Shown here: positions 15,235 through 44,442 of the stretch, piece by piece
Position numbering within the stretch: the first letter of the stretch is position 1
Layout of the letters: each line of letters begins with the position of its first letter
Assembly: GCA_973895155.1 (NCBI GenBank)
Contig: OZ316891.1
Coordinates: 16,457,651-16,521,650 of the forward strand
Source: Marsupella aquatica
Taxonomy: Eukaryota; Plantae; Marchantiophyta
Direction: 5' to 3'
DNA length: 64,000 nt
Notes under the pieces: model-generated
What the model saw: the letters and a program-made list of their open reading frames with translations, nothing else
What the model was told of the DNA's origin: nothing
Databases searched by the model: none
Position numbers and translations under genes: made by a program

Positions 15235-18200
15235 TGTGATGCCTAGCCAGGAATCATTGGGCTAGTTTAAGTGGAAAAGAGAAGTGTACCCTAGAAACAC
15301 CTTAGTATAGTTACAAAAATAAGGAAAATATAAACAATTAAGGGTGACTCTGGAACCCGAGCTGAGGCCGGAAGTAAGGACGCCAGGGGAGAGAACACGA
15401 TTAGGGTTAGGGCACGCTAAGTGCCGGCGGCTAGGGGTAACCAACGGGAGGGAGAACCAGAGGAGGAGAGGGGTAAGGACCGCTCGCGAGGAATAGTGGC
15501 TCATTTGCAAGCACGAACTGGGCAGGCGACTACGGGCGGCCAACTACTGTCAACTGCTTAGGCAAGCGCTTAGGGTGGGAACAGATACCGACTATCAACT
15601 CGAGAAGGGTATGAGCAACATCAATCAAGCGGCACATTTTTGGGGATGCCTGTTCGAACGGGCAACTGAGTACATTGGGACTTATGAGGACGAAGAATCG
15701 AAGAGAGCAGCTCAAGAACGACAGGAGCTCGCCCGATTGTGGGAGCTACAGAAAGCTGCCTTCTTAGGAGGAGAACTCATCAAGGCTGAATTCCTGTGGA
15801 CACCTACTGGCAACGAGCTAGACGACCTGCTATTTTGCGAAGATAGAGTCGTCGGCATCCGAGAAGCCATCAAACGCTGCAACGACATACACTGGGAGTT
15901 GAAGGGTAGCACGGAGGGGTGGACAAAGGCAACCGTGCTAGGAGAGACATCCACGGGAGCCGAGATGAAGAGGAAGGGGAACAACAATGAAGAGGCCACC
16001 CCAGCAAAAAGAACGAGGTCGACGGCACCAAAGAAGCCAGCAGAACAGCAGAGCAGGAGGCAGAGAGAAGCCGAGGAGGAGGAGGTCAACCCCATCAATG
16101 CCATTCCAACAAACGATGACACCTGGAAAGGCTGGGCGGCGACCCTACCAGAGGAAGTGCAATTACACTTTGCACGGGAGGAGGATGCATGCTTTACAGC
16201 TATGCAGACCAAGAAATACCAAGGCTTCATGGCCGGATCCGGCTTGGAAGCCTTCGTAAGATTACCACGGCTGAAGCCGGAGGTGCCGGACTCAGACTTG
16301 TTAAAATCCGTGGGATCATGGGAGTCCAAGACCAATTCCACAAGGGTGTATGGGAAGGATTTCTATCTCACTCCCCGGGTGATTGCTGAAGTGTTTGGCT
16401 TGCCGATGGGTAATAAGACCAAGGTTGATACCAGGAAGACCTTACCTGACAAGGAGTTTCGGTCGTTCCTAGGACCATCAACAAAGAATGGCTTCTTCCG
16501 GAACACCTGCACCAACCCGCACATTGGAGAGATGATCGATTTCTTGCGGGTAACCATGCACTGTAACTTGCCGAGGGCAGAGATCGGCAAGGCTCAGGTC
16601 TACCTGGAAAAAAGGCCAGACCGGGCCCAAGCCGGGATTACAACGGGTACCTCCTCAACCAACTGAAGAAGATCTTGAAGGAGGAACAGCAGGTGATCGG
16701 CGTGGGAAGCGTGTCCCGGCTTGGCTATCACATGCCGCTGTTGTGCCGGTATGCCAGAAGTCAAATCTTTGCCCCAGTACTTCCCCTATCGGCAAGAGCA
16801 CCGGAGGAGGTCCCGGAGCAGAGGCCGGCAACGGAGAAACCCAACCCGCCCGACAGTCCTACAATCGAGCAAGTGTTTAGGCCAAGGACGGAGGACTTGC
16901 CGATGCAGCAACCAGGCATGCAGAATCTGCTGAAATTGCTGGAGAAGGAAAAGAGAACGGCAACGGCAACGGCAACGGCACCAATGCAGGACACTGCTCC
17001 AGAGGTGGGCCTAAGCCGGCTTACAAGGGAAAACCCCTTTACTGGGGTCAAGGAGAGAAGGAGGCCGGAACACGAGCCGGGAGTCCGGATGTATGTCGGA
17101 GCCTCAAGTCCCGAAGCCGAGGAGAAGCAGGCCGTAGCTCCCGGCCACGACAAGGAGAACAAGAGATCAACATGGAAGCCGAAGGAGGAACCAAGACCGG
17201 TGAGAGGTGAAGTCGTGTTCACGACAAAACCAGGAGAACAGTGGGAGAAGCCGGTAGTCCAAGCCGAGGAGGAGGCGGTAGAGGACTACAGCAATGATGA
17301 CTCCGGCTACGGGTCGGATCATCATGTTCCAGGAGTAAGGACCTGTGGCCGGTTCATCCCCACGCTCCCAAGAGTAGTTCGAGGAGACCCGAGCCAGCAG
17401 AGCAGCCCCGAGTCTCCCCCACCAGATGTCGCTCCCCCGAGCTTTGACGGCATAAAACAAACGGCGCAGGAATTTCAGGAGCGAATCAGGGAGGAAGAGG
17501 AGGCAGCCCTGGCTAGGGAAAAGGATTTACCAGGAGGAGAATGGCCAGAGGACATCAGGCGGCTTGCAGAAAAACGAAGCATCCCTCCAGCCACAATAGA
17601 AAAGATCCGCAAGGCGGCTTGGGAGCACAGGCCGCGGTGGATGATGCCGATGACTTCTACTTCCTCCACCTATGCTAAAAATAGAGCCATGGAGTACGGG
17701 GAAATGTGTGGAGAGCAAGCGCTCAGCATCTTTGGGGAAGAGTTGGAGCAAGGACCCTTTTTTCAGAGGGAGATGTTGGAGAAGTGCCAATTAGAAGAAG
17801 CGGTGGCTTTGGAAAGAAGCAAGAAGGACGAGGTCATCCGTCGGCTCAGGGCAAGGGAAGCCGAAATCAAAGACCTGAGGGCGGCCAAGAAAGCCCAAGA
17901 TGAGCTACGGATTAAGCGGCATGAGCTAAATATCATGCAGGGCCAATTGGATACCGCATAGTCTGATAATCGGATTATCGAGAATAAATTGACTCGAACC
18001 CAAGAAGAGTTGGCCGATGCGATCAAGGAGCGAGAGAAGTGGAAGCGAGAGCTGAGGGATGCAAAGGAGGCCCACATAACAGCCAACAACCGGGCCAGGG
18101 CGGAGACCCAAAGAAGGGAAAGGGCATTGAAGGGGGAGCTCGAGGTTATCCGCGGAGCCCTTGAGAAGAAGGAGGCCGAGTTAGGGAAATCCTATCAAGG

Positions 18201-19978
18201 GATTATTGCGCTGCAGCAAGAGCTTGCATCCCTGACGGCCAGCTTCAAGGCCGACCTGCGTGAGAAGGACAATATGCTCGATCAGACTTATGCCAAGATG
18301 AACCAGATGGAGTCTGTCATCATTGCAGAGCTTGACAAGGAGTTAAGAGCAACCCGGGAGGAGAGAGCTACGTTTAAACAGGAATTGGAGGAAGCCCAAA
18401 AGGAGCTGGAGGAGGCGCGCAAGGACCTGGACGAAGTGCAGGAAGAGTTGGAGGAAAGCACGCGGAAGCTAGAGAACTTACAACGACGAGCCGACAACCA
18501 AACGGAGCGGCTGAAGAAACAAGCCGCAGTATTTAAGTGCTTGGCTTCATCAGGGCCAACTCAAATTGAGGCCACTAAGTTACCAGGAGTGGTACTGGCC
18601 GAAGGACAAGCCGCGCCATTTGCACTAGTGCCGGAAGTAAGTGGGAAGAGGAAGGGGCCAGCTGCCGAACCAGAAAAGAAGAAGAAGTGGAAACCTTCAG
18701 GGTCAGGGAGTAATACGGCTCCACAGGCCATGGTGACCAAGGAGGTAAACCCAGCACCGACCTCGGGCAGGGTTACGGCAGAGGATCCAACTACCCTAGA
18801 AGAAGGGGATGACAAAGCCGAGGCCAGGATACTCGGTAATGAAGCCGAGGTACCCAATCCGCCATTTGAGTGTGCAGGGGAGGCCGTAGCCGTGGCTGAG
18901 GCCGTAGCCAAGGCTGATGTTGAAGCCGATGCCGTTGCCGGGGGCGGACCCAATCAGGCCGATGGAGAGTTGACTCAGTCAAGGGCAGGTAATCTGTCAG
19001 AGAACAAACCTACGGCAATGGCTGAGGTGGAAGCGTTGGGGGCGTCCACTGAGGAACAGACACCGCTGCCATGACGATGGTGGAGGGCTGCTCCTTTCAA
19101 GGAGGGTGGACGTGGAGGGAGGAGGCGTGAGTGGGCAGGGCGGGCTCAAATCTCTAAGTTTAGGATTAGGATCAGGACCAGGAGGCAGCCCTGACACTTA
19201 GCTTAGTAGGATTGCGGTTCCACTGGTAAGAGCAACACTTGTACTCCTGCCTTGCTGTACATAGGTAGATTCAGTTAGGTAGATTAGGCTTACGCTGCAA
19301 GGAATTAGGCGGATCCACTACCAGGATAAGTACCTGGGCAGCGGGGAGCTCAGGGCCTCTTCTTTAGCAAGTTTTTAGTTGCACCAGCCGGGCTGGGATC
19401 AAGTAGTAAGAGAAGCTCTCGGTTAGTCATACAGTGACCCTTGTGTATATTCATGTTTCCTCATGCCTAAGAGCTAAATAGAGTTGGCCTCACGGCTTAG
19501 TTCGCAGAGCTTGTGTATGAGATGTACTGTTTGTATGGCAAGTGCATGGTATGACTCAGTCAGAAGGAGTCATTTTGCTATTTGTGTGTCGCATTAACTT
19601 GTGTGAAGAGTGCCCACATCAACTAATAGAGGAAGGAAAGTAAGCAAGGGAGTGAGAGTTGGATGTGTCGAGCTGAGAGAGGTCTTAGCGGCTTAACCAA
19701 GCCTATTGGGGATCATTCCGGCGGCGGAATCCAAATATACCTAACAAGATGGAGGGGAAGACAAGGGAAGGCCTAGATTAGGCTGGCTACGTATCTCATG
19801 ATCCAATGAAGGATCTGTCCAATATATGCGTGTAAAATGTTAATAGTAGTAGTAGAAGGAGGTTAGTAGCGTCCCATGGCACTAAGCCGCGGAAACGGCC
19901 TCGCCAAGCACGAAACCCGCGGGAATCGGCTTGTGAAGGGGGGTTTCTGGGGTTTAGGGAGCCATGGGACGCACCACA
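15235..19978 (+). mobile_element. Giant LTR family X, full length (~4.74 kb)
   Basis: TGTGATGCCTAG...GGACGCACCACA; ORF pieces 15575-16666, 16675-17961, 17989-19074. Confidence 0.93.
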
Positions 19979-22350
19979 GCTTGGGAACAAAGGCTGCGGT
20001 GGATGATGCCGATGACTTCTACTTCCTCCACCTATGCTAAAAATAGAGCCATGGAGTACGGGGAGATGTGTGGAGAGCAAGCGCTCAGCATCTTTGGGGA
20101 GGAGTTGGAGCAAGGACCCTTTTTTCATAGGGAGATGTTGGAGAAGCGCCAATTAGAAGAAGCGGTGGCTTTGGAAAGAAGCAAGAAGGACGAGGTCATC
20201 CGTCGGCTTAGGGCAAGGGAAGCCAAAATCAAAGACCTGAGGGCGGCCAAGAAAGCCCAAGATGAGCTACGGATTAAGCGGCATGAGCTAAATATCATGC
20301 AGGGCCAATTGGATACCGCATAGTCTGATAATCGGATTATCGAGAATAAACTGACTCGAACCCAAGGAGAGTTGGCCGATGCAATCAAGGAGCAGGAGAA
20401 GTGGAAGCGAGAGCTGAGGGATGCAGAGGAGGCCCACATAACAGCCAACAACCGGGCCATGGCGGAGACCCAGAGAAGGGAAAGGGCGTTGAAGGGGGAG
20501 CTCGAGGATATCCGCGGAGCCCTTGAGCAGAAGGAGGCTGAGTTAGGGAAATCCTATCAAGGGATTATTGCGCTGCAGCAGGAGCTTGCGTCCCTGAAGG
20601 CCAGCTTCAAGGCCGACCTACAAGAGAAGGATGACCAGCTTGACTAGACTTATGCCAAGATGAATAAAATGGAGTCTGAGGTCGTAACGGAGCTCGACAA
20701 AGAGCTAAGAGCAACCCAGGAGGAGAGGGCTACCTTCAAGAAGGAATTGGAGGAAGCCCACAGGGAGCTGGAGGAAGCCCAGAAGGAGCTGGAGGAGGCG
20801 TGCAAGGACCTGGACGAAGTGCAGGAAGAGTTGGAGGAAAGCACGCAGAAGCTGGAAAACTTACAATGGCGAGCCGACAACCAAACGGAGCGACTGAAGA
20901 AACAAGTCGCAGTATTTAAGTGCTTGGCTTCTTCCAGCCCAACTCCAATTGGGGCAACCAAGTTACCAGGAGTGGTACTGGCCGAAGGACAAGCCGCGCC
21001 ACTTGCACCAGTGCCGGAGGTAAGTGGGAAGGGGAAGGGGCCAGCTGCCGAACCAGAAAAGAAGAAGAAGCGAAAACCTTTTGGGTCAAGGAGTAATACG
21101 GCTCCACAGGCCATGGTGACCAAGGAGGTAAACCCAGCACCGACCTCAGGCAGGGTCACAGTAGAGGATCCAACTACCCTAGAAGGAGGGGAGGGCAAAC
21201 CCGAGGCCGGGATACTCGGTAATGAAGCCGAGGTACCGAAACCACCACTTGAGTGTGCAGGGGAGGCCGTAGCCGAGGCTGATGCCAAAGCCGATGCCGA
21301 TGCCGAAGCCGAGGGTGGACCCAGTCAGGCCGATGGAGAGTTGACTCAGTCTAGGGCAGGTAATCTGTCAGAGAACGAACCTACGGCAGTGGCTGAGGAG
21401 GAAGCGTTGGGGGCGTCCATTGAGGAACAGACACCGCTGCCATGATGGTGGTGGAGGGCCGCTCCTTTCAAGGAGGGCGGACGTGGAGGGAGGAGGCGTG
21501 AGTGGGCAGGGCAGGCTCAAATCTCTAAGTTTAGGATTAGGATCAGGACTAGGAGGCGGCCCTGACACTTAGCTTAGTGGGATTGTGGTTCTACTGGTAA
21601 GAACAACACTTGTACTTCTGCCTCGCTGTACATAGGTAGATTCAGTTAGGTAGATTAGGCTTACGCTGCAAGGAATTAGGTGGATCCACTACCAGGATAA
21701 GTACCTGGGCAGCGGGGAGCTCAGGGCCTCTTCTTTAGCAAGTTTTTAGTTGCACCAGCCGGGCTGGGATCAAGTAGTAAGAGAAGCTCTCGGTTAGTCA
21801 TACAGTGACCCTTGTGTATATTCATGTTTCCTCATGCCTAAGAGCTGAATAGAGTTGGCCTCACGGCTTAGTTCGCAGAGCTTGTGTATGAGATATACTG
21901 TTTGTATGGCAAGTGCATGGTATGACTCAGTCAGAAGGAGTCATTTTGCTATTTGTGTGTCGCATTAACTTGTGTGAAGAGTGCCCACATCAACTAATAG
22001 ATGAAGGAAAGTAAGCAAGGGAGTGAGAGTTGGATGTGTCGAGCTGAGAGAGGTCTTAGCGGCTTAACCAAGCCTGTTGGGGATCATTCCGGCGGCGGAA
22101 TCCAAACATACCTAACCAGAAGGAGGGGAAGACAAGGGAAGGCCTAGATTAGGCCGGCTACGTATCTCATGACCCGATGAAGGATCTGTCTAGTATATGT
22201 GTGTAAAATGTTAATAGTAGTAGTAGAAAGAAGTTAGCAGCGTCCCATGCCGCTAAGCCGCGAAAACGGCCTCGCCAAGCGCGAAACCTGCGGGAATCGG
22301 CTTGTGCAGGGGGGGTTTCTTGGGTTTAGGGAGCCATGGGACGCACCACA
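19979..22350 (+). mobile_element. 3' half of another family-X LTR, in tandem with the previous copy
   Basis: Begins mid-ORF (GCTTGGGAACAAAGG, cf. 17617) and ends GCACCACA; the composite 15235-22350 is flanked by GAGGT/GAGGC. Confidence 0.92.
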
Positions 22351-22421
22351 GAGGCATCTCTCGGTAGATGCCACTTGAACTCTCTTGGTGCTCATTTTTA
22401 GTCTTTCTTCAAGTGGTTATC

Positions 22422-25400: not shown

Positions 25401-26639
25401 TCATTCTAGTAACGCAACCTAAGAAGCGAAAGTTCAAGGGGATTTTAAGCCAAGATGCAAACTTGAAAAGTACCATTCCTGACGTGGTCGACTTGTCAAC
25501 CTCGTTAGACTCTTCTCCAGGCTCTGGTGGATCAGATGTGGTGATTTTGGAGAGCCCAGTACAGCGTGAGACAAGGTCGGCACGTGTCCCTCCACCATCA
25601 ACCCCAAGGAGGTCAACTCGAGTGCCTCCTCCGCCCCCAACAAGGGCAACACGTGTTCCACCTCCTCCAACCCCAACAAGGTCAATACCAAGGTCACCTC
25701 GTGTTTGTCCACCAAGGCGGTTTGCTGAACCTTTGCATAATGCTGGCAAATAGAGACAAGTTCAAGAGAGCAATGTGATGCCAGGAATGTTGTTTTTGTC
25801 TTGCATCAGTCGCCATGGAAGTGGGCCCGCTTGTAGAGGTGCCTTCAAAGGCACAGAACGTCCAACATGCTGTCTATACATCAAGGAGGTGGGGTTTTGT
25901 CATGCAATGTTGGGTGTGGTAGGATTGTGCTTATTGGCTGGGAGCAGTTACAAGGATCCAAACATTGCACAAAAGTTTTGGTTTTGCCCAAACAATGAGT
26001 GTTGCCAGAAATCCTCCATGGCATATGTTACTGGGCGGCTGCCCCCACTACCGGAGAAGGTCCCAGTTGCTCGATGAACCTATCTAACACAAGAGGAAGT
26101 TGATTTTCTCCATGTCAATGGATTGAATGTGGTACAGACCATCATTCCTGGTGATTCAATGGTGAGTCCTGGCAATGTAATTGTGGACTTGAATAGTTAC
26201 CCTAAGCAGATGGATCCATTGAAGCCTGATGTCAGGCTGAGCCGGCGCAATGGCCGCTTACGGCGAAGGAGATCCGTTGTGACGGCAGATGCAAAGAAAC
26301 GTATTGAGAGTGCCAAATACGTATTGAGAGTTGATGAGGTTCACTTCCATGACTCGAATTGAAAAAGAGAATGCAACTGGCTTACGAGTGGTATTTTTCA
26401 ACACTCATCGTGACCGCAATTCAGCCCATTGTCTACAGATATGTGTGTTCCCAACTTGCTCTTGTCAAGATTTCATCATGAGAGATACTGGAAGATACTT
26501 CTTTCCTTGCAAACACTTGTATTGGTGCTATAAAAACATTTGTGGACAAGATCTAGAGAGCAACCAAGAGATCCACCAACCAATCTTGACACTTAGCGAG
26601 GTTCGTAAATTGGTGTCAAATGTAGCAGGCTCAGGGTGA
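22422..26639 (+). pseudogene. MULE-type DDE transposase with N-terminal GCM-like Zn domain and C-terminal SWIM finger
   Basis: RCLGSLQC...CAFC...C...HVGSHSHP (GCM-like); MMFDVMH...FYGFIADNATARWNAV...DAFHWAQSV (MULE DDE core); PTCSCQDF...PCKHLYW (SWIM). Intron ~24346-24994; several stops and frameshifts. Confidence 0.82.
24374..24910. repeat. Palindrome array 5 (transposase intron), 37-bp unit
   Basis: Palindrome + GGAAGAGGTGGGTC (24545, 24582, ...), between GTAAGT donor ~24346 and TGTAG acceptor ~24994. Confidence 0.95.
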
Positions 26640-26737
26640 ATGCATGTCAAAGATGTTTCAGGTTTAGTGGGTATAACGATCTACTTTTGTATCCTTTCAT
26701 AATAATAAATGTTCAAGATTTCAAATGATGTTGATCC

Positions 26738-26858
26738 CATCTCGAAGACGCTCTCCGAGATTCCAACCTAGTGTGGATCCCATCTTGGAGAGGCTCTCCG
26801 CGATTCCAAGTGATGTTGATCCCATCTCGGAGGCTCTCTGAGATTCCAAGTGATGTTG
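26738..26858. repeat. Palindrome array 6 (right subterminal, truncated)
   Basis: Three diverged palindromes with spacer TCCAAGTGATGTTGATCCC. Confidence 0.85.
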
Positions 26859-27408
26859 TGTGACGCCGCCGGTATGGCGGGTAATGAGTAATTTTGTCTA
26901 ACCGTGCTTAGCACGCGCGTTAGGGGTATCTTAGGCTATTATTATTAGTATAACGATAGTATTTAGGTAGTCATTATGAGTAGGAAATCATTAGTCAATA
27001 AGGGGAATTCATGTTCAGGCTGGCGGCGTGTCGCCATTCGCACGCCCGGGTTGCAAGCGTGTAATGGGCCCTTTTTCCCCCCTCCCTTGGGTCCATATAA
27101 CGAACTCCGGGAGGCGGCCCCTGACACGAGCTGACCTGGACTGGCGAAAGGGCTGGTACACTGCGAGCGTGAAAGGCTCGACCTATAAGCGACGAGGAGG
27201 CGTCGGGCGATCGACGAGCTCTCAGGTATAAAAGGGGGGTCGACCCTTCCTGACTCGGTTTTGGATTCTTCCTGTACATGTCATCTATTCTTGCTTTTTG
27301 AGGGTCAGGCCGTCGTGCTCTTCCGGCTTCTAGTAGGGCCTCAATTTGCTCTGCCCTTGAGATCGGCTTGTAAGACGATCCCCTTGTATTTAATTTGTTG
27401 TCGGGGAT

Positions 27409-30400
27409 TGTGGTGCGTCCCATGGCTCCCTAAACCCAAGAAACCCCCCAGCTCAAGCCGATTCCCGCAGGTTTCGTGCTTGGCGAGGCCGTTTCCGCGG
27501 CTTAGCGGCATGGGACGCTGCTAACCTTCTACTACTACTATTAACATTTTACACACATATACTGGACAGATCCTTCATCGGGTCATGAGATACGTAGCCG
27601 GCCTAATATAGGTCTTCCCCTGTCTTCCCCTGTCTTCCCCTCCGTCTTGTTAGGTATGTTTGGATTCCGCCGCCGGAATGATCCCCAATAGGCTTGGTTA
27701 AGCCGCTAAGACCTCTCTCAGCTCGACACATCCAACTCTCACTCCCCTGCTTACTTTCCTTCCTTCTGTTGATGTGGGCACTCTTCACACAAGTTAATGC
27801 GACACACAAATAGCAAAATGACTCATTCTGACTGAGTCATACCATGCACTTGCCATACAAACAGTACATCTCATACACAAGTTCTGCGAACTAAGCCGTG
27901 AGGCCAACTCTATTCAGCTCTTAGGCATGAGGAAACATGAATATACACAAGGGTCACTGTATGACTAACCGAGAGCTTCTCGTACTACTTGATCCCAGCC
28001 CGGCTGGTGCAAACTAAAAACTTGCTAAAGAAGAGGCCCTGAGCTCCCCGCTGCCCAGGTACTTATCCTGGTAGTGGATCCGCCATTCTTTGCATCGTAA
28101 GCCTAATCTACTTAACAGTAATCTACTTGCCCGAATCTACCTATGTACAGCAAGGCAGGAGCACAAGTGTTGCTCCTACCAGTGGGACCGCAATCCCACT
28201 AAGCTAAGTGTCAGGGCCGCTCCTGGTTCTGATCCTAATCCTAAACGTGGAGATCCGCGCCCGCCCTGCCCACTCACGCCTCCTCCCTCCACGTCTGCCC
28301 TCCCTAAAAGGAACGGCGCCCTTGCACCGTCACGACACCGGTGGTGGATCCTTAATGGACGCCCCCAACGCTTCCTCCTCAGCCACTGCCGTAGGTTCAT
28401 TCTCTGACAGATTACCTACCCTTGACTGAGTCAACTCTCCATCGGCCTGACTGGGTCCACCTTCGGCTTCAGCCTCGACACCGGCCTCGGCAATACCCAC
28501 GGCTTCGGCCTCAGCCACTCCCTCGGCTTCGGCCTCCCCTTCCCCTAGGGTAGTTGGATCCCTAGCCGTGACCCTGTCTGGGGTCGGTGCTGGGTCTACC
28601 TCCTTGATCACCACGGCCTGTGAAGTTGTATTACTCCTTGACCCTGAAGGTTTCCGCTTCTTCTTCGTTGGTGGCTCGGCAGCTGGTCCCTTCCCCTTCC
28701 CACTTACTTCCGGCATGGTGCAGGTGGCGCGGCTTGTCCTTCGGCAATTACCACCCCTGGTAACTGGTTTGTCCCAACGGGAGATGGACCTGCTGCAGCT
28801 AAGCATTTAAATACTGCGGCTTGTTTCTTCAGCCGCTCTGTTTGGTTGTCGGCCCGCCGCTGTAGGTTCTCCATCTTCCTCGTGATTTCCTCCAACTCCT
28901 CTTGGGTTTCATCCAGGTCCTTACGTGCCCCCTCCAGCTCGTTTTTGGCCTCCTCCTGCTCCCTGTGGGCTTCCTCCAATTCCTTCTTCAAGGTAGCCCT
29001 CTCCTCCTGGGTTGCTCTTAGCTCCTTGTCGAGCTCTGCAATGATGACAGACTCCATCTGGTTCATCTTGGCGTAAGTCTGTTCGAGCATCTCGTCCTTC
29101 TCCCTTAGGTCGGCCTTGAAGCTGGCCGTCAGGGACGCAAGCTCCTGCTGCAGCGCCATAATCCCTTGATAGGATTTCCCTAACTCGACCTCCTTCTGCT
29201 CAAGGGCTCCGCGGATTTTCTCGAGCTCCCCTTTCAACGCCCATTCCTTTCTTTGGGTCTCCGCCATGGCCCGGCTGTTGGCTGTTATGTGGGCCTCCTC
29301 TGTATTCTTCAGCTCTTGCTTCCACTTCTCCCTCTCTTTGATCGTGTCGGCCAACTCTTCCTGCGTCTGAGTCAGTTTATCCTTGATATTCTGATTATCA
29401 GCCTGCGCGGTGTCCAACTGCCCCTGCATGATGTTCAGCTCATGTCGTTTAATCCGCAGTTCATCTTGGGCTTTCTTGGCCGCCCTTAGATCTTCAATCT
29501 CGGCTTCCATCCTCCTAAGCCACCGAATGACCTCGTCCTTCTTGCTTCTCTCTAAAGCCACCGCTTCTTCTAATTGGTGCTTCTCCAACTGCTCCCTATG
29601 GAAAAAGGGTCCTACCTCCAACTCCTCTCCAAAGATGCCGAGCGCAAGTTCCCCACACATCTCACCATACTCCATGGCTCTATTCTTAGCGTAGGTGGAG
29701 TAAGTAGAAGTGATCGGCATCGCCCATCGTGGCCTCTGCTCCCAAGCCGTCCTGCGGATCTCTTCAATCGTGGCTAGAGGTTTGCTTCCTTTTTCGGCTA
29801 GCCGCCTGATGTCCTCCGGCCAATCTCCTCCTGGTAAATCCTTTTCCTTAGCCAGGGCGGCCTCCTCCTCCTGCTTGATTCGCTCCTGAAATTCCTGCAC
29901 CGTCTGTTTTATGCCGTCAAAGCTCGGGGGAGCAACATCTGGTGGGGGAGACTCAGGGCTACTCTGCTGGTTGGGGTCCCCTCGCACTACCCTTGGAAGT
30001 GTGGGGACAAACCGGCCACAGGTCCTTACTCCTGGAACGTGATGGTCCGACCCATAGCCGGAATTATCATGGCTGCAGTCCTCCACTGCCTCCTCTACCT
30101 CTTGGACGTCCGGCTTCTCCCTCTCCTCTTCGTCGGTAGGAGCTTCAGGCAATTCTGCCTCAGATTCGGAGCTTGAGGTTCCCACGTACATTCGAACACC
30201 TGGCTTGGATTCCGGCCTGATTCTCTCCTTGTCTCCAGCAAAGGGGTTTTCTCTTGTGAGCCGGTGTAGGCCTACCTCTGTAGTAGTGTCCTGCATTGTT
30301 GCCGTTGCCGTTGTTGTTGCCGATGCCGATTTCTTTTCTTTCTCCAGTAGTTTCAGCAGACTCTGCATGCCTGGTTGCTGCATCGGCAAGTCTTCCTTCC

Positions 30401-32043
30401 TGGGCCTAAACACCTGCTCGATCGTAGGACTAACAGGTGGTTGAGGCTTCTCAGCCAACGGCCTCGGCGTTGGAGCTTCCTCGGGTGCCCTTACCTGCAG
30501 GGGAAGTACCGGGGCAAAAGTCTGACCTCTGGCATACCGGCACAATAGCGGCATGTGATAGCCAAGCCGCGACACGCTCCCCATGCCGATTACCTGCTGC
30601 TCCTCCTTTAAGATCTTCTTCAATTGGTTGAGGAGGTACCCGTTGTAGTCCCGGCTTGGGTCTGGCCTTTCTGCCAGATAGACCTGTGCCTTGCCGATCT
30701 CTGCCCTCGGCAAGTTACAATGCATGGTCACCCGCAAGAAGTCGATCATCTCTCCTATGTGCGGGTTGGTGCAGGTGTTCCGGAAGAAGCCATTCTTCGT
30801 TGATGGCCCGGGGAACGACCGGAACTCCTTGTCAGGCAAGGTCTTCTTGGTATCAACTTTGGTCTTATTGCCTATCGGCAAGCCAAACACTTCGGCAATT
30901 ACCTTGGGAGTAAGATAGAAATCCTTCCCATATATCCTCGTGCAATTGGTCTCGGGTTCCCATGACCCCACGAATTCTAATAGGTCTGACTCCGGTACCT
31001 CTGGCTTCAGCCATGGTAATCTTACAAAGGCCTCCAAGCCGGATCCGGCCATGAAGCCTTGGTACTTCTTGGTCTACATGGCCGTAAAGCATGCATCCTC
31101 CTCCCGTGCAAAATGTAGTTGCACCTCCACCGGTAGGGTTGCCGCCCAGCCCTTCCAGGTGTCATCCCTGGTTGGAATGGCCTTGATGGGATCGACCTCC
31201 TCCTCTTCGGCTTCTCCCTGCCTCCTGCTCTGCTGCTCGGCTGGCCTCTTTGGTGCCGCCAACCTCGTTCTTTTTGCCGGGGTGGCTTCATCGTTGACGG
31301 CCCCCTTCCTCTTCATCTCTGCTGCCGTGGAGGTTTCTCCTAGCACCGTTGCCTGGGTCCACCTTTCCGTGCTACCCTTTAATTCCGAGTGTATGTCGTT
31401 GCAGTTCTTGATGGCCTCTCGGATGCCGACGACGCTGTCTTTGCAAAACAGAAGATCGTCGAGTTGATTGGAAGTAGGCGTCCACAGGAACTCGTCCTTG
31501 ATGAGTTCGCCTCCTAAGAAAGCCGTCTTCTGCAGCTCCCACAATCGAGCGAGCTCCTACCATTCTCGAGCTGCCCTTTCTGACTCCTCATCCTCGTAAG
31601 TCTTGATGTACTCAGTTGCCCGTTCGAACAGGCATCCCCAGAAATGTGCCGCTTGATTGACGTTGCTCATACCCTCCTTAGGTCGATCGTCGGTATCTAC
31701 TCTCTCCCCGAGTGCTTGCCTAAGCAGCTGACAGTAGTTGGCCTCCCGTAGTCGTCTGCCTAGTTCGTGCTCGCAAATGAGCCACCATCTCCTGCAAGCG
31801 CTCCTTACCCCTCTCCTCTGCCGGTCCTTCTTCCCGTTGATCCTTCCTAGCCGCCGACACTTAACGCGCCCTAACCCTAATCGGGTTTTCACCCTCAGCC
31901 TTACCTCCGGCCTCTGCCCGGGTTCCATGGTTGCCCCTAATTGTTTATATTTTCCTTGTTTTGTCCCTATACTAAGGTGTTCCTAGGGTGCCTTCCTGCT
32001 TTACCCACTTAACCGGCCGAGTGATTCCTGTCTAGGCATCACA
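27409..32043 (-). mobile_element. Giant solo LTR family X (4635 bp) with 5-bp TSD GGGAT
   Basis: GGGAT at 27404-27408 and 32044-32048; TG...CA termini. Confidence 0.95.
28330..31928 (-). pseudogene. LTR-encoded ~1200-codon ORF (best-preserved copy; 782 aa uninterrupted)
   Basis: ATG at 31928 (MEPGQRPEV), 115 bp inside the LTR; TAG stops at 31557 and 31074, frameshift at ~28710. Confidence 0.85.
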
Positions 32044-32082
32044 GGGATAGACGGCGTTGTGGATCCTGTCGGCTCTGCCACA

Positions 32083-35060
32083 ACGCCTGAGGAAAATCCA
32101 CGGTCCCTGCTGTAGCTCCCCACTTAATTGTTTCACCCAACTGGTCCACCTTTGGTGCTTCCTCCAGAATTGAAGCTAAAAAGGTGGATTCTATGGTAAA
32201 GCAGTCCTCGACCTTTTCTTCACCTTCCTCCAAGTCACCTTCCATAGGTTCTTGCCATAATCCACTGGGGGGTACCTCTGGTCCAAAGACACTTTCTTCG
32301 GTTAGGTCAGTGAGGCATTCTAGCCAACGTACCTCATCGGCGGATTCCAGTCCACTGTCGTACCCATCTATCTCCCTGATGCTTTTCCTGCGGTCATCCT
32401 TGGTGTCCCAGGATACCGTGATAGATGGGGCCCCAAAGGTGAACTCCTTCTTACCCCAATCCTCTATTACTTTGGCTAGGTACAGCCATGGCCTGCCAAT
32501 TAAAAGCCGGAATGACGTAGGGTTTACCGGCTTCATTACTACATAGTTAATGCTAAAGAAGATACCTCCTATCTCTGTTTTGATGCCGGTTAACACTCCC
32601 GTGGGAATGACTTGATACCCATTGGCCATGTTTAACACTCTTCCAGTCATCTCTGGCATTAGACCCCATCCTTTTGCTGTTGAATCAATCATAATACATA
32701 CCCCTGATCCTCCATCAATGGGTACTCGCAATAATTTTTCTCCTTGAATCATTAATGGTAATGCTGGGGCTCCTTGATCTTCTTCTATCATCAGCACATC
32801 GGATTTGGTTGCTACCTTGGGTAATCTCGGCTTGCCAAGAATCGCCTTCCTTAACTGCTTTTGGAAGTACGGGATATTTTTCAATAGTTGACCTACGGTT
32901 GCCGAGACTCTAGATTCTAGCACATCTTTAGCCAGGTCATAGGGAACTATCGGCTTCTCTTCTGGCGGTGTCTTCATCTTGGCTTTGGCCTGTTTTTCCA
33001 CGCTGGGTTCCACAACAATTGGATCCTCCAAAGCAAAGAACGCTTTTGCTCGTTTCACATCCTTGGCTATGGCTTCGATATTCTCCAGGGTTTCTAATTC
33101 TCGCAATTGTTCCTTAACACTAGCTATAATAGAGGGGTAGAACAACTTAGGGTGATCTCGATTGAAGTCGCTGTCCTGTGAAGGATTTGGCTCACTGGTG
33201 GGCTCATGGCTTACCTGTGTTTCCGGTGCCTTTCCTTCCCCTTCTGTTGATGTTGACAAAGAGTCGATTCTTTCTTCCTTATCCTTCCCTTTATTTTTGG
33301 CTAGCCCATCCCACCTTTCCTTCCTTCTGGTAGATCGAGTAGAGACCCGGTAGCAATCATGATCCAAATCCTCCTCTGAGAAGGTTGATAGGGCCTCGGC
33401 CTCATCATCAGATGGTCCGAACTCTGCCTCGGCATCCGTTTGCCATCCGAGTTTGATGTGGTTGATTTGAACTCCTCCGGGGGTAGTACCTGGTGGCAAG
33501 ACCTTGACTGGCAAGAGCTTGTGGTTTGCGGCCATGCCTGCCAACCACGTAGGACATTGTCCTAGCAGGTGGCCCTCCTGTCGGCATCCCATACATAGCT
33601 AAGCTGGTTGTCCATCACCTTGTTTGCGTGCATTCGGGCATTCTCTAGCAAAATGACCAGGTTGACCACAATTATAGCATGCCACAAATCTTTGCACATT
33701 CGGCCTAAGAGGTATTGACGGATTTTGAATAATCCGAGGATACATTTCTCCCGGATTGTTCCTTAATCCTGACCAGAGAGATGCAGGTCTGTTGGATAGG
33801 TCTCGTGCTCCAGTCTCACTGATGCCGACAACACTATCAGCAGCATCCCCTAAAAAGTACTCTACTTCTCCCTGACATGGTCTGACCTTAGCCACATGGT
33901 GAACATGACTAGTATTAAGTTTAGGACACGCATCTTTATGGTGTCCAGTTTTATAACATAAGGCACACCATACAGAGCTATCCTCATGTACTACCTTCTT
34001 CTTTGGTTTTACCTCTGCTATTATAGCCTTAAGCTGCTTGGTAAGGGCTACGATGTTATCTGGTGTTTTAGCCTCTAGCTTGACTTTCATCTTTCCCTTC
34101 CTTCTGCCCTTCCTTTTCCTAGTTTTTTCTTCTTCAGAACTAGAAGATGACTCACTCTTGCTACCTCCACTATCCGAGCTTGAGTTATCACTTCTTGACT
34201 TCTTAGAATGTTTCTTTTTCTTATCGTTTTTCTTATGGGTTGATCCTTCCTCCGATGAGGAACTCTCATACTTAAGTTGTTTCTTCCGGCTTGTGATATC
34301 TGCATTAATGTATAATTGAATATCTCTAATTGCCTCGGCTAAAGTCTCTGGATTCTCCTTCCTAATTGCAAAACTCATCTTCTGTGGCAAAGCATTCACT
34401 AACCATTGAAGTTGCATCCCTTCAGATGCATTGGTCTTTGTACGTCTTACCAGCTTTTGGAAGCGTTGCAGGAACTTCATGAAAGATTTGTTCTCTTTGA
34501 ATCGAATTAAGTCGTCCCAACTTCAGCACTGCTAACTCTGAAGTTCCAATGGGTCAAAACTCCTTGACAAATAGTGATCTGAAAGTATTCCAGATGGCTT
34601 GATCTTCCACGTCCAATGCTCTGTACCAAGGCCTAGCCTCACCCTTGAACAGGCCGGGAAGAATTTGCATCTTGATGGCCGATTCTCCATTTGCTGCAGT
34701 GGTTCCTTCGAAGTCATCCAACCATTCGTCCGGATCCTCATCTCCTCTTCCATGAAAGGCCTTGTAATGAATACGCGACCGTTGGCTCAGTCTGGTCCCT
34801 GGCCTCTCGTCTGGCCGTGCCTCTGGTTCCCCCATGTCGGTTGGAGACTCACTTCTCCTTACCGACCCTTCTTCTAGTATGTCTTCTTTGATGCCACTTT
34901 CAGTTATGTAGCTACTAGCTCTTTCTGCCCCTCTCAGTCGCTGTGTATCATGCCACCCGGCGAGCTGCTGTAGACGAGCTCTCTCCCATTGAATTGCTCT
35001 TTCCTCTCTCGGCGTAGGTTCAGTCATTACCCACGCTTTCTTCCTAACTTCATATCTCAC
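32083..35060 (-). pseudogene. gag: Family X gag-protease (Tat/Athila-type Ty3/gypsy), truncated before RT
   Basis: FHGRGDEDPDEWLDDF...LFKGEARPWY (Gag capsid); three CCHC knuckles (CALCYKTGHHKDAC, CYNCGQPGHFAREC, CMGCRQEGHLLGQC); protease IDGGSG...LLIGRPWL. Confidence 0.9.
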
Positions 35061-35072
35061 GGCTTAAAAAAT

Positions 35073-35092
35073 GCCCCCTCCATCTAGCGCCA
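35073..35092 (-). promoter_or_regulatory. Primer-binding site of family X (TGGCGCTAGATGGAGGGGGC)
   Basis: TGG-initiated tract 4 nt after the LTR's CA end and just upstream of gag; the cognate primer RNA was not identified. Confidence 0.75.
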
Positions 35093-35096
35093 AAAA

Positions 35097-36739
35097 TGTG
35101 GTGCGTCCGATGGCTCCACAAACCCAAGAAAACCCCCTTGCTCAAGCCGATTCCCGCAGGTTTTGTCCTTGGCGAGGCCGTTTCCGCGGCTTAGCGGCAT
35201 GGGACGCTGCTAACTCTCCTTCAACTACTATTAACATTTTACACACATATACTGGACAGATCCTTCATCGGGTCATGAGATACTTAGCCGGCCTATTCTA
35301 GTCTTTCCCTTGTATTCCTCTCCTGGTCTTCCATTAGGTATGTTTGGATTCCGCCGCCGGAATGATCCCCAATTGTCTTGGTTAAGCCGCTAAGACCTCT
35401 CTCAGCTCAACACATCCAACTCTCACTCCCTTGCTACTTCCCTTCATTGATGTGGGCTCTCTTCACACAAGTTAATGCGACACACAAATAGAAAAATGAC
35501 TCCTTCTGACTGAGTTATACCATGCACTTGCCATACAAACAGTACATCTCATACACAAGCTCTGCGAACTAAGCCGTGAGGCCAACTCTATTCAGTTCTT
35601 AGGCATGAGGAAACATGAATATACACAAGGGTCACTGTATAACTAACCGAGAGCTTCTCTTACTACTTGATCCCAGCCCTGCTGGTGCAACTAAAAACTT
35701 GTTAAAGAAGAGGCCCTGGACTCCCCACTGCCCAGGTATTTATACTGGCAGCGGATCTGTCCAGAACTTCGCTGCGTAAGCTTAATCTATCCTACCTATA
35801 ATCTACCTAATTGTACAGCGAGGCAGGAGCACAAGTGTTGCTCCTACCAGTGGATCCGCCATCCCACTAATCTAAGTGTCAGGGCCATCTCCTGGTCTTG
35901 ATCCTAATCCTAAACTTGGAGATCTGAGCCCGCCCTGCCCACTCACGCCTCCTACCTCCACGTCCACCCTTCCTTAAAGGAATGGTGCCCTTGCACCGTC
36001 ACGACACCAGTGGCGGATCCTCAATGGACACCCCCAACGCTTCCCCCGCAGCCACAGCCGTTGGTCCGTCCTCTGACAGATTACCTGCCCCGGACCGAGT
36101 CAACTCTTCATCGGCTTGACTGGGTCCACCCTCGGCTTCGGCCCCAGCATCGGTCACGGCCCTCGATACGGCTTCGGCCTCCCCGACATGTTCTAGTGGA
36201 GGATCCGGTACCTCGGCTTCATCAATAGCTGTCTTGGCCTTGCCATCCCCACCTTCTTCAACAGGTGGATCTACTGCCGCAATCATGCCGGAGGTTGGTG
36301 CCGGGTTGACCTCCTAGGTCACAACGGCTTGGTAAGCCGTATAACTCCCAGACCCAGAAGGTTTCCGCTTCTTCTTCTTCCCTACTTTGGTAGCTGGTCC
36401 CTTCCCCTTGCTACCTACCTCCGGCACCTAGGCGTGTGTCTCGGCTTGTCTTTCGGCCAGTACCCCTCTTGGCACCATTCCTCGCCAGCGGTCCTTACCC
36501 CTCTTCTCCTCTGGTCTTTCCTCCCATTGGTTACCCCTAGCCGCCGATGCTTAGCGCACCCTAACCCTAATCGTGTTCTCTCCCCCGACGTCCTTACCTC
36601 CGGCCTCGGCCCGGGTTCCATAGTCACCCTTAATTGTTTATATTTTCCTTGTTTTTTTGTTACTATACTAATGTGTTTATAGGGTACACCTCCGTTTTCC
36701 CCACTTAACTGGCCTAGTGATTCCTGGCTAGGCATCACA
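35097..36739 (-). mobile_element. 5' LTR of family X, internally deleted form (1643 bp)
   Basis: Same termini as the 4.7-kb copies; keeps only the ORF start (MEPGPRPEV) and tail (EDPPLVS), junction at ~36470. Confidence 0.9.
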
Positions 36740-38900: not shown

Positions 38901-38904
38901 AATT

Positions 38905-38916
38905 GCTCTGATACCA
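38905..38916 (-). promoter_or_regulatory. PBS complementary to tRNA-iMet (TGGTATCAGAGC)
   Basis: GCTCTGATACCA on the + strand, upstream of gag. Confidence 0.92.
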
Positions 38917-38920
38917 CAAG

Positions 38921-39769: not shown

Positions 39770-42700
39770 TGTGATGCCTAGCCAGGAATCACTCGGGCAG
39801 TGAAGTGGGTAAAGCAGGAATGCACCCTAGAAACACCTTAGTATAGGGACAAAACAAGGAAAATATAAACAATTAGGGGCGATTATGGAACCCGGGCCGA
39901 GGCCGGAGGTAAGGACGCTGGGGGTGAAAACTCGATTAGGGTTAGGGCGCGCTAAGCGTCGGCGGCTAGGAAGGATCAACGGGAGGAAGGACCGGAAGAG
40001 GAGAGGGGTAAGGAGCGCTTGCAGGAGATGGTGGCTCATTTGCGAGCACGAACTAGGCAGATGACTACGGGAGGCCAACTACTGTCAGCTGCTTAGGCAA
40101 GCACTTGGGGAGAGAATAGATACTGACGATCGACCTAAGGAGGGTATGAGCAACGTCAATCAAGCGGCACATTTCTGGGGATGCCTGTTCGAACGGGCAA
40201 CTGAGTACATCAAGACTTACGAGGACGAGGAATCAGAAAGGGCAGCTCGAGAACGGCAGGAGCTCGCTCGATTGTGGGAGCTGCAGAAGACGGCTTTCTT
40301 AGGAGGCGAACTCATCAAGGACGAGTTCTTGTGGACCCCTACTTCCAATCAGCTCAACGATCTTCTGTTTTGCAAAGACAGCGTCGTCGGCATCCGAGAG
40401 GCCATCAAGAACTGCAACAACATACACTGGGAATTGAAGGGTAGCACGGAAAGGTGGACCCAGGCAACGGTGCTAGGAGAAACCTCCACGGCAGCAGAGA
40501 TGAAGAGGAAGGGAGCCGTCAACGATGAAGCCACCCCAGCAAAAAGAACGAGGTCGGCGGCACCAAAGAAGCCAGCCGAGCAGCAGAGCAGGAGGCAGGG
40601 AGAAGCCGAAGAGGAGGAGGTTGATCCCATCAAGGCCATTCCAACCAGGGATGACACTTGGAAGGGCTGGGCGGCAACCCTACCGGTGGAGGTGCAACTA
40701 CATTTTGCACGGGAGGAGGATGCATGCTTTACGGCCATGCAGACCAAGAAGTACCAAGGCTTCATGGCCGGATCCGGCTTAGAGGCCTTTGTAAGATTAC
40801 CATGGCTGAAGCCGGAAGTACCGGATTCAGACCTATTAGAATTCGTGGGGTCATGGGAACCCGAGACCAATTGCACGAGGATATATGGGAAGGATTTCTA
40901 TCTTACTCCCAAAGTGATTGCCGAAGTGTTTGGATTGCCGATAGGCAATAAGACCAAAGTTGATACCAGGAAGACCTTGCCTGACAAGGAGTTCCGGTCG
41001 TTCCCCGGGCCATCAATGAAGAATGGCTTCTTCCGGAACACCTGCACCAACCCGCACATAGGAGAGATGATCGACTTCTTGAGGGTGACCATGCATTGTA
41101 ACTTGCTGAGGGCAGAGATCGGCAAGGCACAGGTCTATCTGGCAGAGAGGCCAGACCCAAGCCGGGACTACAACGGGTACCTCCTCAACCAATTGAAGAA
41201 GATCTTAAAGGAGGAGCAATAGGTAATCGGCATGGGGAGCATGTCGCGGCTTGGCTATCACATGCCGCTGTTGTGCCGGTATGCCAGAGGTCAGAATTTT
41301 GCCCCAGTACTTCCCCTGTAGGTAAGGGCACCCGAGGAAGCTCCAGCACCGAGGCCGGTAGCAGAGAAGCCTCAACCACCTGTTAGCCCTACGATCGAGC
41401 AGGTGTTTAGACCAAGGAAGGAGGACTTGCCGATGCAGCAACCAGGCATGCAGAGTCTGCTGAAACTACTGGAGAAAGAGAAGAGATCGGCATCGGCAAC
41501 GGCAACGGCAACGACAACAATGCAAGACACTACTCCAGAGGTAGGCTTACACCGGCTTACAAAAGAAAACCCCTTTGCTGGAGACAAGGAGAGAATCAGG
41601 TCGGAATCCAAGCCAGGTGTTCGAATGTATGTGGGAGTCTCAAGCTCTGAATCTGAGGCAGAATTGCCTGAAGCTCCTACCAACAAAGAGGAGAGGGAGA
41701 AGCCGGACGTCCAAGAAGTAGAGGAGGCAGTGGAGGACTGCAGCCATGATAACTCCGGCTATGGGTCGGACCATCACGTTCCAGGAGTAAGGACCTGTGG
41801 CCGGTTTGTCCCCACACTTCCGAGGGTAGTACGAGGGGACCCCAACCAGCAGAGTAGCCCTGAGTCTCCCCCACCAGATGTTGCTCCCCCGAGCTTTGAC
41901 GGCATAAAACAGACGGTGCAGGAATTTCAGGAGCGAACCAGGCAGGAAGAGGAGGCAGCCCTGGCTAGAGAAAAGGATTTGCCAGGAGGAGATTGGCTGG
42001 AGGACATCAGGCGGCTAGCCGAAAAAGGAAGCAAACCTCTAGCCACGATTGAAGAGATCCGCAAGACGGCTTGGGAGCAGAGGCCGCGATGGGCGATGCC
42101 GATCACTTCTACTTACTCCACCTACGCTAAGAATAGAGCCATGGAGTATGGTGAGATGTGTGGGGAACTTGCGCTCGGCATCTTTGGAGAGGAGTTGGAG
42201 GTAGGACCCTTTTTCCATAGGGAGCAGTTGGAGAAGCACCAATTAGAAGAAGCGGTGGCTTTAGAGAGAAGCAAGAAGGACGAGGTCATTCGGCGGCTTA
42301 GGAGGATGGAAGCCGAGATTGAAGATCTAAGGGCGGCCAAGAAAGCCCAAGATGAACTGCGGATTAAACGGCATGAGCTAAACATCATGCAGGGGCAGCT
42401 GGACACCGCACAGGCTGATAATCAAAATATCAAGGATAAACTGACTGAAACGCAGGGAGAGTTGGCCGATACGATCAAAGAGAGGGAGAAGTGGAAGCGA
42501 GAGCTGAGGAATGTAGAGGAGGCCCACATAACCGCCAACAACCGGGCCATGGCGGAAACCCAAAGAAAGGAATGGGCGTTGAAGGGGGAGCTCAAGAAAA
42601 TCCGCGGAGCCCTTGAGCAGAAGGAGGCCGAGTTAGGAAAATCCTATCAAGGGATTATGGCGCTGCAGCAGGAGCTTGCGTCCCTGACGGCCAGCTTCAA

Positions 42701-44442
42701 GGCCGACCTAAGGGAGAAGGACGAGATGCTCGATCAGACTTACGCCAAGATGAATCAGATGGAGTCTGTCATCATTGCAGAGCTCGACAAGGAGCTAAGA
42801 GCAACCCGGGAGGAGAGGGCTACCTTGAGAAAGAACGGGAGGAAGCCCAGAAGGAACTAGAGGAGGCGTGCAAGGACCTGGATGAGACCCAAGAGGAGTT
42901 GGAGGAGATCACGAGGAAGATGGAGAACCTCCAACGGCGGGCCGACAACCAAACAGAGCGGCTGAAGAAACAAGCCGCAGTATTTAAGTGCTTGTCTTCA
43001 TCAGGCCCAACTCCAATTGGGGCAACCAAGTTACCAGGAGTGGTACTGGCCAAAGAAAAAGCCGCGCCACCTGCACCAGTGCCGGAAGTAAGTGGGAAGG
43101 GGAAGGGACCAGCTGCCGAACCAGAAAAGAAGAAGAAGCGGAAACCTTCAGGGTCAAGGAGTAATACGACTCCACTAGCCGTGGTGACCAAGGAGGTAGA
43201 CCCAGCACCAACCTCCGGCAGGAACACGGCAATAGATCCCACTATCACCAAGGGTGGGGAGGGTGCGGCCCAAGCTGAACTACTCAATCATGAGGCCGGT
43301 ATCCCAGATCCGCCTCTTGAGCAGGCCGGGGAGACCGTAGCCGAGGCTGAGGCTGTAGCCGATAATGATTCCCGAGCCGATGCCGACGCCGATGGTGGAC
43401 CCAGTCAGGCCGATGGAGAGTTGACTCAGTCAAGGGTAGGTAATCTGTCAGAAAACGAACCTACGGCAATGGCTGAGGAGGAAGCGTTGGGGGCGTCCAT
43501 TGAGGATCCACCACCGGTGTCGTGACGGTGCAAGGGCGCCGTTCCTTTTAGGAAGGGCGGACGTGGAGGGAGGAGGCGTGAGTGGGCAGGGCGGGCGCTG
43601 ATCTCCAAGTTTAGGATTAGGATCAGGACCAGGAGCGGCCCTGACACTTAGCTTAGTGGGATTGCGGTTCCACTGGTAGGAGCAACACTTGTGCTCTTGC
43701 CTTGCTGTACATAGGTAGATCCGGGCAAGTAGATTACTGTTAGGTAGATTAGGCTTACGCTGCAAGGAATTAGGCGGATCCACTACCAGGATAAGTACCT
43801 GGGCAACGGGGAGCTCAGGGCCTCTTCTTTAGCAAGTTTTTAGTTTGCACCAGCCGGGCTGGGATCAAATAGTAAGGGAAGCTCTTGGTTAGTCATACAG
43901 TGACCCTTGTGTATATTCATGTTTCCTCATGCCTAAGAGCTTAATAGAGTTGGCCTCACGGCTTAGTTCGCAGAGCTTGTGTATGAGATGTACTGTTTGT
44001 ATGACAAGTGCATGGTATGACTCGGTCAGAAGGAGTCATTTTGCTATTTGTGTGTCGCATTAACTTGTGTGAAGAGTGCCCACATCAACTAACAGTAGGA
44101 AGGAAAGTAAGCAGGGGAGTGAGAGTTGGATGTGTCGAGTTGAGAGAGGTCTTAGCGGCTTAACCAAGCCTATTGGGGATCATTCCGGCGGCGGAATCCA
44201 AACATACCTAACAAGACAGAGGGGAAGACAAGGGAAGGCCTAGATTAGGCCGGCTACGTATCTCATGACCCAATGAAGGATCTGTCCAGTATATGTGTGT
44301 AAAATGTTAATAGTAGTAGTAGAAGGTTAGCAGCGTCCCATGCCGCTAAGCCGCGGAAACGGCCTCGCCAAGCGCGAAACCTGCGGGAATCGGCTTGAGT
44401 TGGGGGGTTTCTTGGGTTTAGGGAGCCATGGGACGGACCACA
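39770..44442 (+). mobile_element. Giant solo LTR family X (4673 bp) with 5-bp TSD GCTCA
   Basis: GCTCA at 39765-39769 and 44443-44447; ORF pieces 40146-41222, 41403-42860, 42899-43525. Confidence 0.96.

Follow-up and report, generated by a model that had tools for sequence, protein, structure and literature searches.

The 64,000-nucleotide stretch of the Marsupella aquatica genome studied here (contig OZ316891.1, positions 16,457,651 to 16,521,650 of the forward strand; further referred to as the window) contains several copies of a 4.6-kb unit that is very probably the solo long terminal repeat (LTR) of a plant Ty3/gypsy retrotransposon. Most of the unit is occupied by one sense-strand gene. 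We lean towards the reading that this accessory gene has moved into the U3 region of the LTR, where a promoter of its own, at the LTR 5' end, likely drives it. The reference copy, F, its target site duplication (TSD) and the gene are located as follows; the gene was delimited using the ratio of non-synonymous to synonymous substitution rates (dN/dS) and the start of the homologue P0006.

27409..32043, minus strand: solo LTR copy F (4,635 bp; TG...CA ends; 8-bp imperfect terminal inverted repeat)
27404..27408, no strand: left copy of the TSD GGGAT of F (terminal comparison)
32044..32048, no strand: right copy of the TSD GGGAT of F (terminal comparison)
28330..31670, minus strand: LTR-internal gene, about 1,113 codons in F (1,126 in copy D and 1,154 in copy B by length)

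The 5' end of F is TGTGATGC at 32043, and its 3' end is GCACCACA at 27409. The first-pass annotation had recognized the units as LTRs by their TG...CA ends and the 5-bp TSDs GGGAT and GCTCA, and terminal comparison of F and D bore this out; the probability of one 5-bp TSD by chance is about 0.001. F was inserted as a discrete unit into another repeat, since contigs of two sequencing runs, X1 and X2, show the site without it. Fifteen runs were listed, six of which (four organism labels, four studies) contain at least half of the words of the F unit; one run may be the source of the window itself. Four runs were compared with the unit by contigs, each covering 30 of 30 bins, and in two of these four (X1 and X2) contigs join position 27400 to 32046. 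The X2 joint has five letters in between, that is, the site with a single TSD copy and without F. The empty site is shorter by 4,640 bp, exactly the F unit plus one TSD. Contig depth is greater on the LTR than on the gag-protease region; this value is not a copy number and was not used as evidence. In metagenome contigs the LTR-start pattern had no matches, and a protein scan gave 31 pattern matches with no relatives among them. The sequence around F (26859-27403 and 32049-32082) is repeated and LTR-like, about 0.6 kb long, with a TATA-like motif; the gag-protease of element E, described below, ends there.

Self-comparison of the F unit revealed neither an internal direct repeat pair nor the layout of terminal-repeat retrotransposons in miniature (TRIM) or large retrotransposon derivatives (LARD), which have their own terminal repeat pair with a primer binding site (PBS) as well as a polypurine tract (PPT) inside. 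An internal LTR pair within the 4.7-kb unit had been named at first pass as the outcome that would speak against the LTR reading; none being seen, this reading stands. The unit behaves as a solo LTR because it has a TSD and no internal repeat and because the sister copy E precedes a PBS-like motif, gag and protease. The other copies in the window and the parts of element E are listed below.

39770..44442, plus strand: solo LTR copy D (TSD GCTCA; 92.9% identity to F)
15235..22350, plus strand: copy B (15235-19978; 85% identity to F), then the 3' half of sister copy C, with flanks GAGGT/GAGGC
357-4123, plus strand: copy A3 (unit nucleotides 865-4635)
1-356, minus strand: copy A5, the 5' end of a copy (98.9% identity to F)
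35097..36739, minus strand: copy E, a 5' LTR with both termini, without unit nucleotides 262-3283, the last 143 gene codons kept
35076..35092, minus strand: PBS-like motif, starting with TGG, 4 nt past the 3' end of E's LTR
32100..35027, minus strand: truncated gag and protease of element E (zinc knuckle, profile matches)

The Pfam matches in element E were zf-CCHC (E-value 1.6e-9), Retrotrans_gag under the cut-off and a weak protease match. A PBS and gag next to a unit, as reported at first pass, are thus seen after copy E, together with protease, but E is a 1.64-kb deletion derivative and not a 4.6-kb unit; its identity to F is 82%. Six contigs of run X1 depart from E at the deletion edge 36473, and their letters agree with the gene (by eye), so the deletion appears not to be general to the subfamily of E. 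The primer of the PBS-like motif is presumably tRNA-Asn; sequence checks gave no confirmation, and the window contains no tRNA genes. F was considered as the 3' LTR of element E; this was ruled out by F's own TSD and empty site, the absence of a PPT and the identity to E given above. The 20 nt before the five unit starts in the window include 6-11 purines, and such flanks fit solo or 5' LTRs. A purine run at unit nucleotide 3754 could be a relic PPT.

No reverse transcriptase (RT) or pol of the LTR-gene family was found in the window. The RT match at 4961-5716 is assigned to another, decayed element: the region 4400-5950 contains the decayed RT, RNase H and integrase of a different Ty3 element, which we take to be chromovirus-like by its motifs. 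Copy B ends at CA and is directly followed by the 3' half of C. The two have 21-22 common diagnostic sites per 200 nt at unit nucleotides 2300-2700 and none at 2900-3100, a recombinant patch; B+C may be a collapsed two-LTR element or, equally, a tandem duplication. A5 stands head to head with A3 at unit nucleotide 865, which makes it a nested insertion of the same family or an inversion. A different Ty3-like element (36740-39769, minus strand) was struck twice by the LTR-gene family: D was inserted within it, 2 nt from the 5' end, and E within the protease region.

The gene is 3,341-3,464 nt long and fills 72% of the LTR, less than the 77% initially estimated for the open reading frame (ORF). 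In F it is interrupted by two stop codons (31557-31559, 31074-31076) and by a frameshift near 28716, in D by two stops and one frameshift, and in B by one stop and one frameshift. Hence the long sense frame described at first pass is present, but none of the three full copies (F, D and B) is open, and its length is about 1,110-1,155 rather than 1,200 codons. Likewise, solo LTRs do leave gene copies behind, as had been proposed, but these are decayed in all three full copies.

Selection was assessed by pairwise codon comparison among copies, breaks excluded. The dN/dS values were 0.14-0.18 for unit nucleotides 374-850 (three pairs), 0.11-0.27 for the core (six pairs) and 0.17-0.24 for the helical part (ten pairs). 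Differences between F and B are distributed over the codon positions as 98/75/239, the third-position excess (239 of 412) being significant at p 1e-25. The first-pass annotation had named dN/dS near 1 on internal branches as a result that would speak against a functional gene. Single-base changes common to two of five copies, which represent these branches, comprise 41 synonymous and 18 non-synonymous ones; the neutral synonymous share is 0.23-0.32, and against a share of about 0.3 these counts depart from neutrality at p 5e-10. The frame has 15 distinct indels: 12 preserve it, and the other three, which shift it, are each private to one copy. From the low dN/dS, the shared synonymous excess, the in-frame indels and the private frameshifts, it follows that the gene was under purifying selection during the activity of the family and decayed after insertion.

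The start of the gene differs from the one proposed at first, 115 bp from the LTR 5' end. The 5' region has the following features.

31938..31957 (unit nucleotides 87-106), minus strand: invariant 20-nt block with TATAAA, identical in 5/5 copies, candidate promoter P1
31900-31904 and 31804-31808, minus strand: GTAAG donor-like sites, kept in 5/5 copies
31869-31883, minus strand: telo-box motif of the 5' region, in the leader region
31671..31928, minus strand: segment formerly called the first 86 codons, probable 5' leader (telo-box, donor-like sites, dN/dS)

Copy B has CTG in place of the ATG at 31928. The next 86 codons contain stops in B and D, have dN/dS of 0.50-1.12 in ten of ten pairs and position counts of 16/21/12 with no third-position excess, and differ from the rest of the frame (Fisher p 6e-5). 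The basic N-terminus read from this segment is therefore probably not protein. In turn, the ATG at 31670 (unit nucleotide 374) is kept in all three copies spanning it, and in B the matching ATG is the first one after position 5. Coding constraint begins at about this ATG: the upstream codons are neutral, and the distant homologue P0006 starts at the matching Met. An acceptor-like CTTAG is located about 50 nt before the start codon in three of three copies, and the TATAAA block is the longest invariant run in unit nucleotides 1-261 (five of five copies). The 373 nt before the gene would thus be a promoter and leader.

The other end of the LTR is non-coding.

27409..28329 (unit nucleotides 3715-4635), minus strand: non-coding 3' part of the LTR, likely the genomic promoter, R and U5 (divergence, motifs)

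The last 920 nt diverge by 6% between F and B, as compared with dS of about 0.43 for the gene. Among their motifs are a telo-like repeat and a GC box, together with a weak TATA-like site near 28067 and a T/GT-rich block. No other non-coding block of the LTR is as conserved as the latter (27661-28060), which has 5-12% variable columns in six copies; most other non-coding bins have 17-29%. By these motifs, the 3' 920 nt likely resemble a complete ordinary LTR with a promoter end, R and U5.

Four segments of the encoded protein were distinguished; the structural model was scored by the predicted local distance difference test (pLDDT).

31371..31661, minus strand: conserved N-terminal domain, approximately residues 4-100 (matches to P0004, P0006 and P0008; dN/dS 0.14-0.18 over unit nucleotides 374-850)
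30528..31190, minus strand: conserved core domain, approximately residues 161-381 (15/18 homologue matches; dN/dS 0.11-0.27)
28797..29597, minus strand: two long predicted helices of 110 and 150 residues (AlphaFold2 on a single sequence, pLDDT ~80-90; dN/dS 0.17-0.24)
28651..28665, minus strand: KKKRK in the weakly selected acidic tail (in F, D and C; KKKKWK in B)

Homologues were searched for, unfiltered, among 1.84 billion representatives with an intact 358-aa piece of D as the query. This yielded 18 matches with E-values up to 0.001 (the best, 4e-37, at 39% identity), three of which fall on the N-terminal domain and the other 15 on the core. Of the ten homologues examined, two are labelled with a species, the liverwort Calypogeia fissa, and two further C. 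fissa homologues came from a profile search; the identity of the C. fissa homologues is 25-30%. In a C. fissa gene model, P0027, the domains of RT, RNase H and a portion of integrase are continued, in the sense orientation, by the C-terminal part of another homologue, P0015 (90% identity to that part). As P0027 joins the pol domains to a part of P0015, there is a hint that relatives keep the gene behind pol. Word-indexed protein searches returned no matches to a 782-aa piece of the protein or to the gag of element E. A phage-like helical protein from viral contigs (L001) was rejected as a relative: its match covers 22 residues only and was judged to be chance.

In Pfam, the protein had only weak coiled-coil-type matches under the cut-off, and none of the 18 homologues had a match, two unrelated sub-threshold rows aside; hence the Transposase_32/PMD-like segment reported at first pass was not recovered. 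The nearest families in the ESM Atlas were ATHILA ORF-1 (0.90, 158 features), Transposase_32 (0.89), DUF1985 (0.89) and PMD (0.88), with 142-158 shared features and scores under the membership level, so that kinship of the core to this group is a lead only. The core had no matches in PDB by sequence. As for the coiled coil, KKKRK and acidic tail noted earlier, the long predicted helices, the motif and the acidic tail are present, but heptad periodicity over the whole helical span is not significant; the two long helices likely pair into a coiled coil. KKKRK is taken by us to be similar to a nuclear localization signal (NLS). No transmembrane segment was found (over 19-residue spans, hydropathy peaked at 0.82 in 984 residues of F and at 0.65 in the D tail), so the protein, judged by its sequence, is not env-like.

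These observations may be brought together as follows. The ancestral extra ORF would have been located between pol and the 3' LTR, as related elements keep it; the layout of P0027, with pol in sense followed by the homologue, is that expected of a 3' extra ORF. A shift of plus-strand priming (of the PPT in use) upstream of this ORF would have made it part of the repeat, and reverse transcription would then copy the gene into both LTRs. The LTR would become tripartite, the gene being preceded by a promoter and leader and followed by the usual promoter end with R and U5. The TATA block at unit nucleotides 87-106 would start an LTR-contained mRNA with a short leader, perhaps spliced, ending at the T/GT-rich block near the LTR 3' end, while genomic RNA would start behind the gene, near unit nucleotide 4,000. 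The protein, with two folded domains, long helices, a basic motif and no membrane segment, would be a nuclear, oligomeric helper of the element; our best guess, by analogy and held tentatively, is that it acts on chromatin or silencing. Recombination between LTRs would leave solo LTRs, in which gene copies then decay, as in the three full copies seen. Somewhat doubtful is a stronger form of this scheme, in which the LTR is a self-contained coding transcription unit with the TATA promoter, leader, 3.3-kb gene and poly(A) signal between the att ends. If it holds, each new insertion carries two gene copies, and a young solo LTR is a free-standing gene that could supply a nuclear helper (e.g. an anti-silencing factor) in trans.

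A number of results weigh against placing the gene in U3 with its own promoter. The TATA-like site of the second promoter is poor, TATAAATA occurring in one of six copies only. A full element with two long LTRs was not found in the 64-kb window; a PPT-like purine-rich flank is seen at none of the five unit starts in it, and the 3' LTR is unseen. The sole PBS-adjacent copy, E, lacks 3 kb of the unit and is only 82% identical to F. Selection is uneven, with dN/dS reaching 0.49 in the linker (0.21-0.49, six pairs) and 0.42-0.81 in the tail (15 pairs). P0027 is a single gene prediction, which a nested or deleted locus could explain. Finally, the core has no Pfam match (PF03078, PF20167 and PF10536 included) and no fold match in PDB or BFVD by Foldseek at E-values up to 0.001, its model having pLDDT of 54.

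Since the second TATA is good in only one of six copies, the main rival explanation assumes a single promoter. Transcription would start just past the TATA block, U3 would be about 125 nt long, and a very long R/U5 would contain the gene. The gene mRNA would result from polyadenylation in the 5' LTR and the genomic RNA from read-through, with gag expressed after splicing from the GTAAG donors. This agrees with the 5' TATA being the best in the whole LTR, with the two donor-like sites downstream of it in five of five copies and with the poor second TATA-like site in five of six; moreover, Tekay and Ogre carry sense extra ORFs upstream of gag (PMC6317226, PMC3485330; here and below, statements on cited papers refer to excerpts of them). 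However, the standard replication scheme would then demand a minus-strand strong-stop DNA some 4.5 kb in length, the 3' 920 nt have the appearance of a complete ordinary LTR, in which telo-like and GC-box motifs precede the conserved T/GT-rich block, and the homologue linkage in P0027 suggests a place behind pol. We consider this explanation unlikely.

Less probable still is a gene located in U3 with no promoter in the LTR. It would be expressed from the 3' LTR via a spliced subgenomic RNA or from an internal promoter behind pol, and solo copies would be silent. There is precedent in mouse mammary tumour virus (MMTV) and foamy viruses (PMC12789967), the acceptor-like CTTAG is found in three of three copies, and solo copies decay; however, the invariant TATA block, the telo-box and the donors in the first 260 nt are left unexplained. 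The probability is very low that the unit is a separate non-autonomous mobile cassette borrowing integrase, the PBS and gag beside E being a coincidence or a chimera. No intact two-LTR element is seen in the window, three insertions are inside other elements and E is rearranged, as such a cassette would allow, but inside the unit there is neither an LTR pair nor a PBS or PPT, the PBS-like motif starts 4 nt past the exact 3' terminus of E, and B+C resemble sister LTRs under one near-TSD. As none of the three full copies is open, the frame might be a passenger in decay or merely reflect G+A-rich sequence; this is refuted by the selection tests (dN/dS of about 0.2 with bootstrap intervals far under 1, in-frame indels) and the 18 homologues.

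With the gene in the LTR, probably in U3, the layout is a variant of the MMTV sag type, new for plants as far as the literature searched. The U3 of the MMTV 3' LTR contains the complete sag ORF and three promoters (PMC12789967). In both cases a whole accessory ORF within the terminal repeat is duplicated with the repeat and left in solo LTRs, and there is more than one candidate promoter within the repeat. Unlike sag, which has about 320 codons, the gene studied here belongs to a plant Ty3/gypsy element, has about 1,110 codons, encodes no membrane segment and has no sequence link to sag. The likeness drawn at first pass thus extends to a complete selected ORF between the LTR termini, but its placement in U3 is deduced from motifs only.

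In Athila elements, a 3' ORF with Transposase_32 and an NLS has been described (487 aa in a sunflower example, PMC11728184), and coiled-coil pentamers were predicted for the Athila domain (PMC13547354). Like the Athila 3' extra ORF (PF03078 / PF20167), our gene is a sense extra ORF of a Ty3/gypsy element, its nearest Atlas clusters scoring 0.89-0.90, and like Athila extra proteins its product combines an NLS-like motif with long helices. In contrast, the Athila ORF is located outside the LTR, between pol and the 3' LTR, and is 2-3 times shorter, and our gene has no Pfam match. Membership in the Athila lineage is not established because the window contains no RT of the family. The PBS of Athila is for tRNA-Asp, -Asn or -Ala, and its TSD is 5 bp (PMC6317226, supplement 3); the 5-bp TSD of the unit agrees with Athila, and tRNA-Asn occurs in TatII and Retand too.

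Ogre-type LTRs reach about 5 kb (PMC6317226), and Retrosat2/Tekay elements carry LTRs of more than 3.2 kb and ORF0 before gag (PMC3485330). These elements share with ours a 3-5 kb LTR, a 5-bp TSD and an extra ORF, but the accounts of them give non-coding LTRs and an internal extra ORF, whereas here the gene accounts for the LTR length. Antisense ORFs of Retand (Transposase_28; PMC11963269, PMC7264820) are likewise conserved accessory genes, some Retand proteins having SMC-like coiled regions, and gene23 of the Retand-type element Grande has its own promoter and a nuclear protein. Unlike our gene, the Retand ORFs are antisense and internal, and the LTRs are 315-1,194 bp long.

In general, plant extra ORFs are internal, most of them being located between pol and the 3' LTR (PMC7264820, PMC11963269). 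They have been classed as 5' or 3' of the polyprotein, with PMD, Transposase_28 and Athila ORF-1 as typical domains, and the excerpts of this scheme include no LTR-internal class (PMC6317226). LTRs are described as having no codes for replication enzymes, and the origin of large LTRs as poorly understood (PMC3485330). LTR-contained transcripts are common in maize; they are non-coding, though often spliced (PMC13192763, preprint). The excerpts of PMC3601003, PMC12885004 and PMC11656987 contain nothing on coding LTRs. A plant LTR-internal gene was not found described in the literature searched; subscription papers could hold one.

It is usual to treat the LTRs of plants as non-coding. The LTR length of 3-5 kb, poorly understood in plants, is explained here by a selected gene. 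Annotation of extra ORFs in the internal region only would overlook such a gene, LTR-based dating would mix neutral and selected sites, and solo-LTR formation would multiply the gene rather than remove coding capacity. The family allows the transfer of an accessory gene from the internal region to the repeat, known in retroviruses (sag, nef), to be tested, and is tractable for studying the function of plant retrotransposon extra proteins.

The rest of the window contains a Ulp1 protease ORF (PF02902) and DNA-transposon-like pieces (6773-7384 and 22350-26800), related 32-43-nt tandem arrays at 6250, 9250, 12200 and 24450, a plant long interspersed nuclear element with DUF4283 and RVT_1 (46742-51314), and a host gene whose product has PX and Rubicon-homology domains (56982-60674).

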